From an uncultured virus (IMG/VR IMGVR_UViG_3300028048_000078) (taxonomy: Duplodnaviria; Heunggongvirae; Uroviricota; Caudoviricetes): a stretch of 20,000 nt of DNA. The notes beneath the pieces are model-generated. The model was not told the origin of the DNA and ran no database searches. It saw only the letters and a list, made by a program, of their open reading frames with translations. Location of the stretch: the IMG/VR virus record IMGVR_UViG_3300028048_000078. One strand, written 5' to 3'. Below, in pieces: positions 5,375 to 17,752 of this stretch. The first letter of the stretch is position 1, and the number at the start of each line of letters is the position of its first letter. Position numbers and translations under genes: made by a program.

Positions 5375-5620
5375 ATGTTTTGCGTAAAGTGTGGAAAAGA
5401 ATTCGTTGGCGGTAAGAATAGCCGTTATTGTGAAGAGTGTAAGGCAGAAAAGAAAAAAGAAAATTCAGCTAAAATGAATGTATACGTACAAGAAAGAAAT
5501 AAAAGACTAGGTTTAACTAATATAAGTATCTATAAGGAAGATAGAGATTTATTAAAATCTCTGGGGGCAGAAAAAGGAGTTTCTATAGCAGAGATAGTAA
5601 AAGAACTTTTAAGAAAGTAA
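5375..5620 (+). CDS. Zn-ribbon + ribbon-helix-helix DNA-binding protein
   Basis: CxxCGKEF-x8-CxxC; C-terminal TNISIYKEDRDLLKSLGAEKGVSIAEIVKELL fits the RHH (CopG/Arc) pattern. Confidence 0.75.
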   Translation: MFCVKCGKEFVGGKNSRYCEECKAEKKKENSAKMNVYVQERNKRLGLTNISIYKEDRDLLKSLGAEKGVSIAEIVKELLRK

Positions 5621-5704
5621 TATATGTATATAAATATAATTTATAACTAATATAAATATATATGTATATATGTAAATATAAACATAGAAAAGAGATGAAA
5701 TATA

Positions 5705-5860
5705 ATGATTGAATTATATATAAAGGATAACACTATAACAATAAAAGAATCATGGAATGGTATTAATGTATTAGTAGAAAATCCTTTAGGTAATATATCT
5801 ATAAATAATATACCACAAGAAGAAGCTAGAAGAATATTACTACAGTATATTAGTAAATAG
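5705..5860 (+). CDS. Small hypothetical protein (51 aa)
   Basis: MIELYIKDNTITIKESWNGINVLVENPLGNISINNIPQEEARRILLQYISK; weak RBS. Confidence 0.5.
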   Translation: MIELYIKDNTITIKESWNGINVLVENPLGNISINNIPQEEARRILLQYISK

Positions 5861-5863
5861 CTA

Positions 5864-5915
5864 GTCAAAAAACACTGTCAAATAGCTATGTCAAAAATAG
5901 GTGTCAAATAGCTAG
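5864..5915. repeat. Four GTCAAA-headed 13-bp tandem units
   Basis: GTCAAA at 5864, 5877, 5890, 5903. Confidence 0.85.
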
Positions 5916-5970
5916 CTGGCTCTCACTATACAATACTATTGACTTTGTAAATTGGTGTATTGACATTATT

Positions 5971-6385
5971 AGTGTGTGTTTTTCCTATATATATAGAGAA
6001 AATACACACTTTTTCTTTTTTTTCTATATATACTGAAACATATATAGTTGTGTTTTTCTTATATATATACTAAGAATAATACCATATATCTTTTTTGCCC
6101 AAAGGATTTTGTATTTTTCCTATATATATAGACAATATACATATTCTTTTTGTTTTTCCTATATATATAGATAACAATATACATCTCTTTTCTTTTTTTC
6201 TTTCCCCCAGAGGACTTTGTGTATTTCTCTTATATATATACTAACAATACAATAGTTGTTATTTCTCTATATATATATACATATATAATCTCTTCTTCTT
6301 TTCTTTTTTGCCCAAAAGGTACTTTGTGTTTTTCTATATATATATACAGAAATACATATAATCTCTTTTTGCCCAAAAGTTTTTT
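5971..6385. repeat. Degenerate array of about 8 TTTTC(C/T)TATATATATA palindromic units
   Basis: Cores near 5985, 6024, 6060, 6120, 6159, 6230, 6267, 6334; (G/C)CCC boxes at 6097, 6204, 6310, 6371. Confidence 0.85.
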
Positions 6386-6395
6386 GAGAATTGTA

Positions 6396-6424
6396 TTGAC
6401 AGTCAAATGTTTTTATAGTATACT
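6396..6424 (+). promoter_or_regulatory. SigA-type promoter P7
   Basis: TTGACA-17-TATACT. Confidence 0.9.
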
Positions 6425-6458
6425 TAAGCTACAAAATAACAAAAAGGAGTGTTGAATT

Positions 6459-6905
6459 ATGAATGAATTGATGAAACTTTATGAGGAAGTATTCATTCCT
6501 GCTTGGGAAGAATCTCATACAGAGGGAGAACCACCTTGCTTTGAGGAATGGAAGGACAATGACTTTTATGAGTGGCTAGATGATTATATAAACAACAAAG
6601 AGTATGAATGGCAAGCTAATTTAATTAGTACTTATGCTAGAGAAGTTATAACAAATATTCCTGTTTGTTATGATATGTATACTCTTAATGATTATGATTT
6701 TACAGATATTTATGATAAAATCGACCATGAGAACTTTAATGTTCGCCATGATGTATATTGGAATGAATGTGGTGGTTATATCTGTAGTGGTGATTATTGT
6801 GCTTATGTTGATAAGTATTGGGATGATAATAAAGACGACATCTTAAACTATGTTATTAAATTCTTTGATACTTTTGATATTGATACTGACGAATATTTTT
6901 GTTGA
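6459..6905 (+). CDS. Highly acidic hypothetical protein (GYICSG family)
   Basis: RBS AAGGAG; stop in the -35 of P8; similar to 10435..10800. Confidence 0.85.
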   Translation: MNELMKLYEEVFIPAWEESHTEGEPPCFEEWKDNDFYEWLDDYINNKEYEWQANLISTYAREVITNIPVCYDMYTLNDYDFTDIYDKIDHENFNVRHDVYWNECGGYICSGDYCAYVDKYWDDNKDDILNYVIKFFDTFDIDTDEYFC

Positions 6906-6930
6906 CAAGTTAATGTTTTTGCAGTATAAT
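6902..6930 (+). promoter_or_regulatory. SigA-type promoter P8
   Basis: TTGACA-17-TATAAT. Confidence 0.9.
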
Positions 6931-6964
6931 GTACTCACAAACAACAGATAAGGAGTGTTGAATT

Positions 6965-7387
6965 ATGGAAGTTAAAGTAGAAGTTAATAATGAGTTTGCA
7001 TTAAAGGATTTACTTTGGGGACAAGGTTATGACACATTTAAGAGAGTTTGTGATGAAGGTTTAGGCGAAGCTTTAATGAATCACATTGAAGAACTTTTCT
7101 GTGATGAGTTGCCAGACATTTGTGATATTAATGACTATCTTGCCTATGAACTTGATGAAGATGAGTTTATTGCTACTCATATAAACCTTGATGATTTACT
7201 TGATATTGATACTCTTATGCAGTATGCTTCTGAGTTAGGTTATTTTAAGGCACATGGTACTATTAAAGAAGCTATTAATATTGGTAAATCTAAGGAGTTA
7301 TGGGATTATCTTGTAGATAATTATTCTGATTATAATTTGGATGATTTATTTTCTGAAATTAACTGTATTGATTTAGAAGATATCTGA
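6965..7387 (+). CDS. Highly acidic hypothetical protein
   Basis: RBS AAGGAG; N-terminal half resembles 12033..12245. Confidence 0.85.
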   Translation: MEVKVEVNNEFALKDLLWGQGYDTFKRVCDEGLGEALMNHIEELFCDELPDICDINDYLAYELDEDEFIATHINLDDLLDIDTLMQYASELGYFKAHGTIKEAINIGKSKELWDYLVDNYSDYNLDDLFSEINCIDLEDI

Positions 7388-7398
7388 AAATCTCTTTT

Positions 7399-7424
7399 GC
7401 CCCCAGCTTTTTGGGGGCTTTTTT
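7399..7424 (+). terminator. Intrinsic terminator
   Basis: gccccca-gctttt-tgggggc + T run. Confidence 0.85.
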
Positions 7425-7452
7425 GACAGTATATATTTATATATGCTATAAT
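7423..7452 (+). promoter_or_regulatory. SigA-type promoter P9 (no ORF of its own)
   Basis: TTGACA-18-TATAAT with extended TG. Confidence 0.8.
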
Positions 7453-7458
7453 TTATAT

Positions 7459-7507
7459 ATATAGTAAAACAATTCTTTACTAAAGGAAGCAGTACATACA
7501 TTGTCAA
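7459..7507 (+). ncRNA. Candidate small RNA/leader: 24-nt copy of the helicase CDS plus 23-nt copy of the post-helicase repeat arm
   Basis: 7460-7483 is identical to 9351-9374; 7484-7506 matches 9719-9741 at 21/23; begins at the predicted TSS of P9. Confidence 0.4.
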
Positions 7508-7516
7508 AACTTTTTC

Positions 7517-7545
7517 TTGACATATTAATGTTTTTGTAGTATACT
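7517..7545 (+). promoter_or_regulatory. SigA-type promoter P10
   Basis: TTGACA-17-TATACT. Confidence 0.9.
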
Positions 7546-7578
7546 TTAGTCATAGTCAAACAGAAAGGATGATGTGAT

Positions 7579-8067
7579 ATGAAGTATACTACAGAACAAG
7601 TCAGAAAGATGGTTTTTGCTTTCCGTGAGGATATGGCTTCAAGAGGTATTGAAGTCGGTAGAGTTTGGAGAGTAAAGTTTGGCAAGTCAGCACACACTTT
7701 TGGACTTTGTACCTATGAAGGACATGATATGTACACCATTACTATTAATGACTTAGCTTTGCATGGTGAAGTTATTGATACTATTGTACATGAGCTTATT
7801 CACACTGTTAAAGGTTGTATGAACCACGGCAAGAAGTTTCATGAGATTGCTGATATGTGCAATAAAATCTATAACCTTGATATTGGTACTCATGCTAGTA
7901 AAAAGGAGATTGAAGCTTGCAAGGAATATAGACTTAGGACTTCTAAGTATGTAATACAGTGTACTAAGTGTGGGAATACAATTTTTAGGACTAGAAGTTG
8001 TAGGCTTGTTAATCACCCTAATCACTATTCTTGTGTATGTGGTGGCGAACTTAGAAGAATCAGATGA
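7579..8067 (+). CDS. SprT-like zinc metalloprotease with C-terminal Zn ribbon
   Basis: FGLC, DTIVHELIH (HExxH), NHGKKF, Y...CTKCG...Y.CVCGG.L. Confidence 0.9.
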   Translation: MKYTTEQVRKMVFAFREDMASRGIEVGRVWRVKFGKSAHTFGLCTYEGHDMYTITINDLALHGEVIDTIVHELIHTVKGCMNHGKKFHEIADMCNKIYNLDIGTHASKKEIEACKEYRLRTSKYVIQCTKCGNTIFRTRSCRLVNHPNHYSCVCGGELRRIR

Positions 8068-8070
8068 TTT

Positions 8071-8089
8071 GTGGGGGATTTTCCCCCAC
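8071..8089 (+). other. GC-rich intergenic hairpin (weak terminator or processing site)
   Basis: gtggggga-ttt-tcccccac with a poor U-tract. Confidence 0.55.
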
Positions 8090-8117
8090 TAACTTTCTTA
8101 CAACGAGGTGAACAACA

Positions 8118-8303
8118 ATGTATACAATGGTTATTAGGCTTATACGGACAACTATAGGAAGTGAGGTTGATTTTAGTAGAATTGTAGCTACTCTTGATAA
8201 AGATAGTGGCTATGGCTACGAATATCTTAAAGACCATGTAAAGCTTCTTAATGTCAGTGCCTTGCCTAATGAATATTATAAAATTGATTATGAAGTTACT
8301 TGA
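8118..8303 (+). CDS. Hypothetical protein
   Basis: RBS GAGGTGA; stop in the -35 of P11. Confidence 0.75.
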   Translation: MYTMVIRLIRTTIGSEVDFSRIVATLDKDSGYGYEYLKDHVKLLNVSALPNEYYKIDYEVT

Positions 8304-8329
8304 CAGTTAATGTTTTTATATGATATAAT
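8300..8329 (+). promoter_or_regulatory. SigA-type promoter P11
   Basis: TTGACA-18-TATAAT, extended TG. Confidence 0.85.
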
Positions 8330-8349
8330 CTTCTTAAAGAGGTGATTAT

Positions 8350-9525
8350 ATGATAACTGTTATTGACAGTCCTTGTGGTCGAGGAAAAACTACCTATGCT
8401 ATCAAATATATCAATGAAAGACCAACAGACAATTTTGTGTATATTACACCATTTCTGAAAGAGGTTGAAAGAGTCATTGAACAAACCAATAAAAGATTTG
8501 TACAACCTGCTAATGTTGGTAATGGAAAATATGAAAGCTTAGTTAATTTGTTTAATAATAATAAAGACATTGTATCTACACATTCACTATTTTCTAAATG
8601 TAGTCAGAGTGTAGCTGAAAACATCAAAATGGGACATTATACCCTCATTTTAGATGAAGTTATGAGTGTTGTGGAAGTATTAAACCTTAAAAAGTCTGAT
8701 ATACCTACAATGTTAGATGCTGAGTTAGTCAGAATTGACGAAAAGACTAATAAACTTATATGGTTAAAAGACGATTATGATGGAGCTTACAATGAAATAA
8801 AGGAAAGATGTGAAAACAATAATATCTATGTTGTTAGTGGTGTAGCTATTATATGGACTTTTCCTGTAGAGATTTTTGAAGCTTTTGACAATGTAATTAT
8901 CTGCACATATATGTTTGATTATCAACTACAAAAGTACTACTATGATATGTACTCTGTAGAGTACACTAAAAAGTCTATTGTAGATGGCGAACTAGTTGAT
9001 TATATTGAACAAAAAGACAATCTTGATAAGTTACACATACTAGAAAATAACAAAATTAACCATGTAGGTGATGGTAAGTACGATTTGTCTAAGTCTTGGT
9101 ATGAAAGGCATAAGGGAAACTTAAAGGTATTACAAAACAATATTTATAACTATGTACATAACTTTTCCCCTACACTATCATGTAGTAAAGTTAAGTCTAA
9201 AGATGTTATTTGGACTACTTTTAAGGACTATAAGACTAAACTAAGTGGTAAAGGCTATGCTAATGCATTTATTCCTTGTAATTCTAGAGCTACTAACGAA
9301 TATATGAATAGTTTTGTTGTTGTTTATCCTATAAATATATTTGTTAATCCTATAGTAAAACAATTCTTTACTAACAATGGTGTAGAGATTGATGAGGATA
9401 ACTATGCTTTATCTGAACTAATACAGTTTATCTATAGGAGTAGAATTAGACAAAATGAGCATATTTTCTGTTATATACCTAGTCTAAGAATGAGAAGCTT
9501 GTTATATAACTATATAATGCCTTGA
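8350..9525 (+). CDS. SF2 helicase-like ATPase (DEAD/DEAH-like; possible origin-binding/replication protein)
   Basis: Walker A DSPCGRGKTT, motif Ia YITPF, STH, Walker B LILDEV, motif V-like RATNEY, motif VI-like QFIYRSRIR. Confidence 0.85.
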   Translation: MITVIDSPCGRGKTTYAIKYINERPTDNFVYITPFLKEVERVIEQTNKRFVQPANVGNGKYESLVNLFNNNKDIVSTHSLFSKCSQSVAENIKMGHYTLILDEVMSVVEVLNLKKSDIPTMLDAELVRIDEKTNKLIWLKDDYDGAYNEIKERCENNNIYVVSGVAIIWTFPVEIFEAFDNVIICTYMFDYQLQKYYYDMYSVEYTKKSIVDGELVDYIEQKDNLDKLHILENNKINHVGDGKYDLSKSWYERHKGNLKVLQNNIYNYVHNFSPTLSCSKVKSKDVIWTTFKDYKTKLSGKGYANAFIPCNSRATNEYMNSFVVVYPINIFVNPIVKQFFTNNGVEIDEDNYALSELIQFIYRSRIRQNEHIFCYIPSLRMRSLLYNYIMP

Positions 9526-9741
9526 CAATGTATGTTCTGCTCTTACTGAGCAGATAAAGCTAAAGCTTTATAACTTTAACACTTTGAAGGTGTTAAAATT
9601 GAAAATGAAGCTAGTAATATCAAGGCTTCCAGCGATTTTCCCTTAAAGAATAGTAAGAGTAAAATAAGAAATAGAGAATGGATAATGAGTATACCCTTTA
9701 GGGTATACTTGTTTCCGTAGGAAACAGCACATACATTGTCA
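9523..9741. other. Inverted-repeat-bounded, hairpin-rich non-coding element (candidate origin or structured RNA)
   Basis: Ends TGACAATGTATGTTCTG / CAGCACATACATTGTCA (16/17 IR); internal hairpins near 9536-9554, 9575-9597, 9607-9629, 9688-9709, 9711-9725. Confidence 0.65.
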
Positions 9742-9785
9742 GAAGTGATTTTTTATGATTATCGAAAAAATTTATAAAATATTTG

Positions 9786-9814
9786 TTGACAGAGTATTTT
9801 GTTTTAGTTATAAT
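9786..9814 (+). promoter_or_regulatory. SigA-type promoter P12
   Basis: TTGACA-17-TATAAT. Confidence 0.85.
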
Positions 9815-9921
9815 AAGCTTAGAAAATCTGATAGGGATAAAGACAAATACATTCCTACAGAAGCAATTATTAATGGCTATGACAGTCATGGAAACTATAA
9901 TATTATAAGGAGAGATGTAAA

Positions 9922-10320
9922 ATGAGTATGAGAACTTGGTTGATTGAGGATATTTGTGACAGACTTGAAAATTGGGAAGGTAATGTAGTTGCTATTTCAG
10001 ATTTACCAAATTATCTGTATCAGTCAGCACTTGCAGATGGTAGTATCTTCTATAGTACATATGAAACTAGACAATGGATAGCTAAGTACTTTGAGGATAT
10101 TGCAGAAGTCATTGAGGATTATGAGGATGAAATTGAGGACTGTGCAGACTTGAAGCAAGTTTTCACAAATCCAGAAGCTTTCCATGTAGACTTGTGTTAT
10201 TTCTTGTGTAATCCATTGTTACATGAATCAGAGTGGATAGACGAACATGAAGATGAAGAAGTAGAGCTGACAGAGGAAATCATTGAAACCATTAAGGGAG
10301 AGCTTTTAGCTACTATTTAA
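9922..10320 (+). CDS. Highly acidic hypothetical protein
   Basis: RBS AAGGAG; D/E-rich. Confidence 0.85.
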   Translation: MSMRTWLIEDICDRLENWEGNVVAISDLPNYLYQSALADGSIFYSTYETRQWIAKYFEDIAEVIEDYEDEIEDCADLKQVFTNPEAFHVDLCYFLCNPLLHESEWIDEHEDEEVELTEEIIETIKGELLATI

Positions 10321-10328
10321 CAACAAAT

Positions 10329-10361
10329 AAGGGACTATTTTATATAGTCCCTTTTCTTTTT
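10329..10361 (+). terminator. Intrinsic terminator
   Basis: aagggacta...tagtccctt + T run. Confidence 0.85.
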
Positions 10362-10371
10362 AAAAATTTTA

Positions 10372-10400
10372 TTGACAACAAAAACATTAAGTAGTATAAT
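10372..10400 (+). promoter_or_regulatory. SigA-type promoter P13
   Basis: TTGACA-17-TATAAT. Confidence 0.9.
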
Positions 10401-10434
10401 GTAATTACAAAATAACAAAAGGGAGTGTTAAACA

Positions 10435-10800
10435 ATGAAAATCAGAGATTTTATCGGTAATAGTGATTACTGTAGTAATGAAGAACTTATTGAACTTTGG
10501 AACAACCATTGTATTTTAGCAGGATATGTAGATGATATGTGTCACCCTATGAGTCAGTTTGATGATTTAGTAGACACAGACAGACCATACAAAGAGGTTA
10601 TTAAGAAATTAGATAGTAACTTTAACCATAATCACTCAGTATTTTGGATTAATGGGTGCGGTTATATCTGTAGTGGCTATACATCAGATTATATCAATAA
10701 GGTAGTTGATATTGATTTGTTAGCTGATAGCATAGAGCTAAATCCTAGTGACTTTGATACTTTTGATTGGGACGAAGTTACAGATATTCAAAATTCTTAA
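10435..10800 (+). CDS. Acidic hypothetical protein (GYICSG family)
   Basis: RBS GGGAG; NFN..H.V(F/Y)W....GYICSG shared with 6459..6905. Confidence 0.85.
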   Translation: MKIRDFIGNSDYCSNEELIELWNNHCILAGYVDDMCHPMSQFDDLVDTDRPYKEVIKKLDSNFNHNHSVFWINGCGYICSGYTSDYINKVVDIDLLADSIELNPSDFDTFDWDEVTDIQNS

Positions 10801-10871: not shown

Positions 10872-11360
10872 ATGAAGCAGGAATACACAAGTGCAAAGAC
10901 AAGTACAAAACAAGTACCTAGAACACACAAACATCTTATTAAGTATGGTGAAGGTTTTAAGAACTTTGATAATGGTGCAGGAAAGTACATGGATGGTACA
11001 ATGTATCTGTACGACCATAAGATTTTTAATCATAGGTACGACCCATTTAACGTATCAGAGGTGGAGAACTTTGGCTCATTATCCTATAAGGGCGAATACT
11101 TTACTAGTACAATAGCCAATGTACTCAATACAATAAAGGAAAAGGAAGTACAGTTAGATGTACTCAAAAGAAGCTATGACATGCTTAGAGAAGGTGGATT
11201 TTGCTTCATTTGTGTATACTATGATAAGAATAAGTCAGCAGGAGCTACAAGGAATGGCTGGCAGTGGCATAAACCATTAAAAGACTATGTTCCTTTAGTA
11301 AAAGAGGTTTTTGGTGTAAAGGTACACATTGAAAACAATATTATTGTAGCTATCAAGTAA
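10872..11360 (+). CDS. Class I SAM-dependent methyltransferase-like protein
   Basis: Motif I FDNGAGK, YDPFN, ANVLNTI, LREGG. Confidence 0.75.
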   Translation: MKQEYTSAKTSTKQVPRTHKHLIKYGEGFKNFDNGAGKYMDGTMYLYDHKIFNHRYDPFNVSEVENFGSLSYKGEYFTSTIANVLNTIKEKEVQLDVLKRSYDMLREGGFCFICVYYDKNKSAGATRNGWQWHKPLKDYVPLVKEVFGVKVHIENNIIVAIK

Positions 11361-11379
11361 GAGGTGGAAACACCTCTTA
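11358..11379 (+). other. Perfect hairpin with GAAA tetraloop
   Basis: taagaggtg-gaaa-cacctctta, no U-tract. Confidence 0.6.
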
Positions 11380-11399
11380 CAAAATTCTTAAAATTTTTG

Positions 11400-11429
11400 T
11401 TGACAATACACAAAACACCATGTTATAAT
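11400..11429 (+). promoter_or_regulatory. SigA-type promoter P15
   Basis: TTGACA-18-TATAAT, extended TG. Confidence 0.85.
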
Positions 11430-11461
11430 TAAGACATCAAATAACAAAGGGAGTGTTAAAT

Positions 11462-11833
11462 ATGAATTTTAGAGATGTAAACGGAAAGTTGTATTCCTAT
11501 TATGGCAAGCTTATTTTAAATGATTACGAGAGGGAACACAAAAGACTGTCTTACAGTAATATGTTAAAGGCATTAACTGATGATTGTTATATTCTTAATA
11601 ACACAATTGCTGATAAGTTTGAGTTTGACTTCTTAGACGAGAGTCTATACGACTTAGAAGAGCTGACAATTTATCAGTACTACATCATCAGCGAATACAC
11701 AGCAGAAAAGTTACAGAAGCACACAAACGAGATTATACTCTATAATGCTGATTTGGATATGTATTTGTTAGGTGTAGGGCATTTTGGTACATCTTGGGAT
11801 TATGTTTTAACAGATATTAAGATAGAGGAGTAA
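11462..11833 (+). CDS. Conserved-looking phage early protein (YQYYII...HFGTSWDYV)
   Basis: RBS GGGAG then ATG 11462. Confidence 0.85.
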   Translation: MNFRDVNGKLYSYYGKLILNDYEREHKRLSYSNMLKALTDDCYILNNTIADKFEFDFLDESLYDLEELTIYQYYIISEYTAEKLQKHTNEIILYNADLDMYLLGVGHFGTSWDYVLTDIKIEE

Positions 11834-16957: not shown

Positions 16958-17149
16958 ACTTTAGCAGACTAAAGGGCGAGGTAGCCTACTTCACCCATGT
17001 AGCACTTTAGCACGTTAAAGTCTTAAAGCTTTAAGACTTTAGCACGTTAAAGTGTTAAATAATTAAAACTTTAGCACGTTAAAGTGTTAAAGCTTTAATA
17101 CTTTAGTATGGTAAAGTTGTAAAGTTTTAGTGCTTTAGCAGACTAAAGT
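16958..17149. repeat. Array of 18-bp palindromes ACTTTAGCACGTTAAAGT at 32-bp period
   Basis: Copies at 17004, 17036, 17068 (exact), 17100, 17132 (variants), plus 16958. Confidence 0.9.
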
Positions 17150-17150
17150 C

Positions 17151-17206
17151 TGACTTTTTGCTGATTTGACCTTTTGACCTTTTGACTAATTAACCTTTTG
17201 ACTTTT
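17151..17206. repeat. 8-bp tandem repeat TGAC(C/T)TTT
   Basis: TGAC at 17151, 17167, 17175, 17183, 17199; TAAC at 17191. Confidence 0.8.
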
Positions 17207-17752
17207 TAAAAGTTAAAAATCTTTTTACTTAGTCAGATGCCCTTATTTGCTAATGACTATTAACTTTTGAATTGAAAAGTTAAAAAAAGTTTATACTTGT
17301 CCTGAGACTCGCATAAGTGAATAGTTATTAACTAATGTGTTGGTGTTGTTCGCTTTTGTCTGATTTTGGGGATAATGGCCACTTTATAAATGCCTCTGTA
17401 AGGCCACCAGATGCCCTGTATTCGTTTTTATGGTATAAAGGTATAAATATATGGGTTGTTGTCGTTGCGTTTAACCTGTGCAATTCTCAATTAGAAGCCT
17501 TGATATATAAGGGTTTTTGGTATGATAATGAGTATCAAGTAGCGGTATTTGTGGCTAAACTTTGTTCTGTTTAAGTAGTATATGAATTTTGCCTAATGTA
17601 TTAAGGTGAAAGTCTAGGTCCGGCCCTTATATAATTAAGTGAAGTTCCTGGATTTGTTAATAAATGTAAAGAATGAAGGTCCCGGAAGGCCCTGGATAAG
17701 TGTCATTTATGAAAGTTATGTATTACCATAAAAATCTTGTATAGTAAATTGC

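Follow-up and report, generated by a model that had tools for sequence, protein, structure and literature searches.

Why should a phage carry a perfect consensus promoter that is followed by no gene, only by two abutting pieces that recur in its own helicase locus? The question was pursued in a stretch of 20,000 nt (the window), read 5' to 3' on the plus strand, which consists of phage DNA with 31% GC and is present in gut and bovine-gut metagenome runs; no RNA dataset was listed for it, which has no bearing on expression. The original prediction took the transcript of this promoter for a guide or bridging RNA acting on the helicase gene and named a mini-origin, a decoy and a deletion relic as alternatives. 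Its anatomy was upheld and the relic became the best-supported reading, whereas the conserved guide of its headline was not sustained.

Along the plus strand of the window runs a long series of consensus promoters, each with small ORFs under its control. P9 (7423..7452, plus strand) agrees with the consensus at 12/12 positions (TTGACA-18-TATAAT), shows an additional TG extension and is directly preceded by an intrinsic terminator-like hairpin (7399..7418, plus strand). As had been claimed, it is the sole promoter among 26 listed plus-strand TTGACA promoters that lacks an RBS and an ORF of at least 25 codons before the next promoter. This next promoter, P10 (7517..7545, plus strand; -35 box at 7517), serves a SprT-like metalloprotease ORF of 162 aa (7579..8067, plus strand; PF10263, E 8e-7, above the curated cut-off), for whose product no relative was found in IMG/VR. 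Neither a terminator between P9 and P10, nor a peptide of at least 25 codons from P9, nor an antisense promoter inside the element was found; minus-strand sites matching 10/12 promoter positions (7811-7783 and 9921-9894) are at chance level. Compared with the 25 other promoters, P9 has two tied best matches, of which the helicase gene promoter (8300..8329, plus strand; 25/30) alone aligns without gaps, a resemblance that is ordinary for nearest neighbours in the array (scores 13-23).

The first piece behind P9 is a 24-mer (7460..7483, plus strand), which is an exact copy of helicase codons 334-342 (9351..9374, plus strand; 24/24, identity stopping at both ends) and forms a perfect 7-bp dyad at the +1 of the promoter. 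Since its first four nucleotides, TATA, coincide with a (TA)n run after the -10 box of P9, 20 nt remain as an unambiguous copy. The second piece (7484..7507, plus strand) is a copy of the arm closing, as an inverted repeat, a 220-nt folded region behind the helicase: 7484-7506 agrees with 9719-9741 in 21/23 positions and 7489-7507 with the reverse complement of 9522-9540 in 18/19, a match that rises to 19/20 (9522-9541) when position 7488 is added. All match coordinates of the original prediction proved correct on sequence comparison, and the two matches abut. Compared with the 24 nt observed, matches to the CDS reached 18 nt at most in 300 Markov-simulated backgrounds, and the arm pattern has three matches in the window where 0.09 are expected. 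The composite is a single unit, no second guide or array being present in the window; likewise, the dyad of the 24-mer has six window matches at three or fewer mismatches (7.5 expected) and no further good copies. Folding of an RNA covering 7457-7510 is not unusual (z -1.1).

The gene to which both pieces lead back (8350..9525, plus strand) encodes a protein of 391 aa of the YonV family, which matches phrog_2467 over the full length of the profile (E 2e-68 across residues 2-388), carries PF27199 (YonV_C) and is 41% identical to SPbeta YonV (NP_046621.1) over 99% of its length. PF27199 was found on all 120 listed homologues. GxGKT (Walker A) and LILDEV (DE motif) are invariant in this protein of two RecA-like domains. 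In structure comparison, DinG/XPD helicases are the best matches of the predicted model (pLDDT 90.9), with Z 17.5, rmsd 4.8 and 325 aligned residues for DinG and Z 16.7, rmsd 4.9 and 333 aligned residues for CasDinG, the latter tied within 1 Z with non-CRISPR DinG/XPD proteins; judged by this model, the protein is a putative SF2 helicase of DinG/XPD-like fold. A LAGLIDADG domain occurs in 9/11 longer homologues (longer forms at P0187-P0195 and L134-L150), where these domains are likely inteins; according to the accessible part of PMC5784728, inteins favour replication, recombination and repair proteins. In many SPbeta-like loci yonV is interrupted by some 500 inserted nucleotides, several phages hold two yonV-family gene copies, and the members of one family subgroup (L003, L007, L029, L030) have in common the short motif GCCAAACGGC, which lies 70-110 nt upstream of the start codon. 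Transcription of yonV is reported in the text accessible to us of PMC5848175; our literature search on yonV found neither a function nor a description of a 3' motif.

Close homologues (P0003-P0054, P0121-P0186) are patchworks of two or three allele blocks, and one helicase allele differs across residues 295-361 and at the C-terminus. Two recombinant alleles break just after the 24-mer. That the 24-mer is a gene-conversion patch sweeping through the alleles was considered and not shown, mosaic borders occurring all along the protein. Variation of the G.U type in protein P0122 was rejected as an artefact of the translation code, because TGA codons underlie both of its tryptophans.

Behind the gene, 9520-9745 folds as a closed multi-hairpin (z -8.7; minus strand -8.2), whose left arm (9522..9541, plus strand) spans the helicase stop codon and whose right arm (9719..9741, plus strand) is the likely source of 7484-7506. 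The layout recurs in L121, with 50% protein identity the closest sequenced relative compared as DNA: there, a 20-bp inverted repeat starting from the stop codon (11173-11555) encloses a hairpin-rich region of 340 nt, the sequence of the closing repeat being unrelated. One hairpin (9575..9597, plus strand) is common to both, with 10/10 pairs kept in L121 and two of them changed on both sides, a covariation that stems from two sequences only and is not significant alone. Several small insertions lie on this conserved hairpin (9576-9595) in one of the strain runs considered below (X13). The fold contains more G.U pairs on the plus strand (6 vs 2; 17 vs 8 in L121). In the family at large, a folding z of -2 or lower was obtained in 24/45 of the closest loci (12 shuffles each), and a family-wide closing stem was not found, since among 145 loci a score of 14 is reached by the window and L121 only and random windows reach 13. 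The core pattern shared by the window and L121 has 17 matches in IMG/VR, with a helicase within 2.5 kb in L121's own record only. The enrichment of GNA mini-hairpins in the post-gene regions is only slight (11 top, 7 bottom in 58 kb). A search of Rfam gave three weak sub-threshold matches in 5500-10500 and unrelated tmRNA only in the loci of four relatives.

Within the folded region lies a bipartite motif (9605..9655, plus strand) that is found family-wide, an imperfect palindrome with a fixed gap and a CCTTAAA box, which presumably resembles an IHF-type bending site. It occurs 3' of the stop codon in 52/145 dereplicated loci (the window and 51/144 relatives), in 43 of them within 50 nt, compared with 57 peaks elsewhere in 4.9 Mb, an enrichment that is inflated because the motif was trained on these post-gene regions; the window, excluded from training, scores 24.8 at 9605. 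In 18 larger records eight matches lie near the gene (one on the 5' side) and two are remote. The motif core is oriented either way (7 vs 8) and hence points to a double-stranded DNA site. The motif behind yonV-family genes is a candidate cognate cis element, most likely of origin type; an earlier description was not found in the literature. We regard this motif and the folded region around it as the more durable gain of the study, and the motif as the part most worth following; it gives a direct handle on the role of a widespread, intein-bearing SPbeta-like phage helicase.

Other repeats occur in the window. The palindrome half of the family motif recurs once in isolation, at 17495-17518, and 16996-17163 holds palindromic repeats with a period of 8 bp and a likeness to 9561-9597 (84% over 37 nt); both places are possibly near a genome end. 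Moreover, 5860-6380 is poor in ORFs and contains repeated TGTCAAA words and many repeats of the TTTTCCTATATATA type, whose copy number varies between strains; this stretch could be an origin.

If P9 encoded a conserved guide, relatives should hold short copies of their own helicase genes behind a promoter, as the original prediction had proposed to check. No CDS copy of at least 20 nt outside the CDS was found in 205 distinct relatives (flanks of up to 10 kb on each side), and a CDS piece adjoining a post-gene piece occurs in 1/245 loci (not dereplicated, window included), namely in the window alone. Likewise, 18 larger virus records with 19 genes (1.8 Mb, 16-100% complete) gave no combination of arm and CDS copy; these are 18 of 22 records, G004, G013, G018 and G019 being left out and the second G005 paralogue not serving as query. 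Relatives compared as DNA share either at most 51% or at least about 95% protein identity. The longest remote CDS copy in the 18 records is an AT-rich intergenic 20-mer in G003 (L290 3788-3819), which matches the yonV of its own phage at the codons homologous to the 24-mer, overlaps a 125-fold leader motif and has no closing arm; it is a weak lead and probably due to chance. Remote pieces of post-yonV sequence without a gene were seen in two complete phage records, G002 (L271 16603-16620, L268 989-1014) and G005 (L283 6752-6791). IMG/VR yielded no close relative, and searches of it gave no match to the exact 24-mer and six single matches to the arm pattern, none with a helicase.

Close strains provide the second line of evidence. 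Of four strain runs compared, one carries the element, two replace it and one breaks at the same points. X2, a run from another study, is identical to the window over 7301-7936; as every listed piece of its locus is near-clonal with that of the window, it does not represent an independent origin. In X4 and X13 single contigs join 7181 and 7183, respectively, to 7517 with 471 and 469 other letters between, and X3 has loose ends at 7181 and 7517. The swapped segment that holds the element (7182..7516, strand not assigned) ends on the left inside an ORF and on the right at the -35 box of P10. Contig comparison shows presence, not absence, and the replacements of about 470 nt are known by length only; depth arithmetic gives no cover of 7404-7516 in X3 and X13, and this lack of cover is not counted as evidence. 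All four runs keep the helicase, X4 and X13 retain parts of the 3' element (X4 without any difference over 9346-9561), and X3 covers the complete 3' element, 12 differences falling within 856 nt. Strains with the same target therefore do not need the element, and a conserved guide or bridging RNA is contradicted by relatives that lack the copy as well as by close strains that keep helicase and 3' element and carry other DNA at the site. X13 also joins 6442 to 6950. At 9786-9925 the window shows a promoter and then a 108-nt leader resembling the 3' remnant of some gene, and X13 and X3 have other sequence before 9842-9852.

On balance, the element is probably a gene-less, internally deleted copy of the helicase cassette in a shuffling promoter array, made once and confined to one lineage. 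Its promoter, CDS piece, right arm and next promoter follow the order of the helicase cassette, with overlaps of 1-4 nt at the junctions of the pieces, and this colinearity is joined by the single occurrence, the replacement in X4 and X13, nearby cassette rearrangements and the mosaic homologues; the shuffling of PeSL cassettes, taken up below, is a precedent. It may have originated by short-homology template switching or by deletion near the structured 3' element, possibly with another allele of the helicase cassette as donor, and may have been placed by recombination between look-alike promoters of the array. Since the CDS stretch is invariant between strains, the 24/24 identity needs no selection on the copy; with an invariant CDS and varying non-coding DNA, a donor of another allele would explain a perfect 24-mer beside a slightly diverged arm. 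Several points stand against a miniature cassette of this kind. Its borders look purposeful, the copy beginning near +1 and the arm taking in all of the complementary sequence. For the left arm, the copied arm is a better pairing partner than the native right arm, and P9 is still 12/12 consensus. Zero changes in 20-24 nt have a probability of 0.03-0.06 if the pieces are of the same age and neutral, assuming the pooled divergence of promoter and arm (13%). Finally, within the replacements of X4 and X13 the arm could be present with another 5' piece.

What transcription from P9 would do can be judged from the neighbouring cassette. In read-through RNA only, a hairpin is predicted (7532..7596, plus strand; -26.7 kcal/mol, z -7.0) that sequesters the SprT-like gene's RBS together with its start codon; the RNA of P10 itself has z +1.1. 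Two displayed changes in X4 within the stem preserve pairing, and the hairpin belongs to the SprT cassette, because it is also present in strains without P9. Among 23 cassettes, start-codon pairing is strongest at the SprT-like gene and second at the helicase cassette, the promoter regions of both (7532-7596 and 8300-8370) pairing with their own start codons; such pairing would silence translation from read-through RNA only. As the read-through RNA folds over the SprT start, P9 RNA is predicted to be non-coding. If P9 fires, its RNA would run into P10, fold this hairpin over the SprT start and make no protein, with little or no net effect or, at most, some damping of P10. A relic of this kind would show promoter-cassette arrays converting fragments of a structured locus into units that resemble guides and are possible raw material for new regulatory RNAs, and the element warns against calling guides from one genome.

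A young trans-acting RNA of antisense type is a possible though doubtful alternative to the miniature cassette. Here, 7484-7507 of the P9 RNA would pair with the nascent left arm (9522-9541) before the native right arm is made, and would block or reroute the closing stem, so that at the 3' cis element either the processing of the mRNA or priming would be tuned. In this scheme the 24-mer would serve as a 5' hairpin only, and the 3' end might be produced by cleavage within the hairpin at 7532-7596. Having the same sense as the helicase mRNA, the 24-mer cannot pair with it and could act on DNA only; the left arm is the one strong predicted partner of the P9 RNA, which keeps this alternative alive. 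The predicted duplex is stronger than the native stem (-29.4 vs -24.9 kcal/mol), co-folding with a transcript that stops at 9600 brings about 17 kcal/mol, a closing stem at the stop codon recurs in L121 with unrelated sequence, and the plus strand is richer in G.U pairs. The identical allele in X2, from another study, could be added, although X2 is near-clonal with the window. Against such an RNA, the element is absent at the site in strains keeping the target, and the short RNA has neither a terminator nor a significant fold.

It is unlikely that the element acts as a DNA decoy or operator, in which dyad and arm would be copied binding sites of YonV or a regulator that titrate the protein or control the SprT-like gene. 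The perfect dyad at a promoter +1 would suit this function, and some relatives also hold remote pieces of their own post-gene region (18 nt in G002, 40 nt in G005). However, further good copies of the dyad are lacking in the window, its 7-nt spacer was copied as well, which an operator would not need, and a common allele alters exactly these codons. The conserved family motif, the obvious candidate binding site, is absent from the element; the mini-origin of the original prediction is weakened for the same reason.

Very improbable is a true guide, in which the P9 RNA would be a spacer-repeat unit and the RNA of 9522-9741 a tracr-like scaffold with a 5' anti-repeat, the two loading the DinG-like helicase at 9351-9374, next to its cis element (for R-loop priming or self-control), or on phages sharing the allele. 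In favour, 20-24 nt of target identity are followed by about 20 nt predicted to pair with the 5' end of an RNA of several hairpins (although both strands of the post-helicase region fold almost equally), the helicase fold is closest to DinG/XPD including CasDinG, and the copied codons are among those differing between the two main alleles. Yet the unit is single, was not found in relatives and is replaced in close strains, the core motif flips its orientation as a double-stranded DNA site would, and the 5' arm of the scaffold is already partnered in cis. Nor was a partner of Cas5/6/7/8 or RAMP type found among 16 ORFs scanned, neighbours of the helicase included; the helicase itself matches Cas3 profiles only partially (P-loop) and far below the cut-off, and no CRISPR repeat family matched 5500-10500 up to E 5. 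We would give just as little credence to a nuclease-free targeting system of two RNAs and one protein, composed of YonV, its own 3' structured RNA and the newly captured P9 spacer-repeat. In it, the P9 unit would pair with the 5' arm of the structured RNA and steer the helicase to a chosen DNA site, be it to fire an origin or to counter related phages; if real, a minimal helicase directed by RNA would be new. A resemblance by chance within AT-rich sequence, to which the low GC content and the AT-rich 24-mer would lend themselves, has next to no probability in view of the length of the CDS match, the excess of arm matches and their abutment, and is rejected.

How does the locus compare with known systems? 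In type II crRNA:tracrRNA pairs, a DNA-matching 5' sequence precedes a stretch that can pair with the 5' end of an RNA rich in hairpins. The P9 element shares the DNA-matching 5' part and, by prediction, the pairing stretch, but no Cas protein, array or Rfam CRISPR repeat was found with it, and it is not conserved and draws its 'repeat' from the phage's own helicase locus. ColE1 RNA I and the CI RNA of phage P4 are antisense controls of replication whose genes sit at, or inside, the locus they target, and they are conserved. The P9 RNA is likewise predicted to be short and able to bind a structured transcript in the vicinity of a putative origin; in contrast, the element is a distant, lineage-restricted copy, half of which is sense. 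SPbeta YonV, besides its similarity in sequence, also has an annotated stem-loop and then a gap of 330 nt behind its gene. No description of an RNA-guided phage helicase of the YonV kind was found in the literature; crRNA-like regulatory RNAs (crlRNAs) do occur in phages, according to the accessible part of that account (10.1101/2024.10.29.618823). Alternating GGY/NN motifs, given for VIPR RNA in the text available of its description (10.64898/2026.04.26.720920), are absent from 7460-7507. Type IV-A CRISPR, as far as set out in the accessible portion of 10.1101/2023.06.23.546257, places its guide in a multi-subunit complex fed by a CRISPR array and works with CasDinG; a DinG-type helicase fold on a mobile element is common to both, whereas neither complex nor array was found here and the fold is equally near to ordinary DinG/XPD. 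In the origin-binding helicases UL9 and T5 D2 an SF2 helicase is proposed to act at a cognate cis site (PMC3632103, in the part accessible), and YonV, too, is a phage SF2 helicase with a candidate cognate cis site; by contrast, its sequence match to UL9 is insignificant (E 0.4), UL9 is absent among the listed top fold matches (which does not speak against kinship), and the model of its 391 aa suggests no appended DNA-binding domain. The promoter-stem-loop cassettes (PeSL) of T4-type phages shuffle, as told in the accessible text of Arbiol et al. (2010, PMC2839356). Measured against that text, the promoters of the window do not form a uniform promoter-plus-terminator unit, and the cargo consists of two copied pieces of another locus instead of a gene; in common with PeSL, the window has strong look-alike promoters, terminators and small variable ORFs, a strain swap that ends on a promoter, and the loss and replacement of cassettes.
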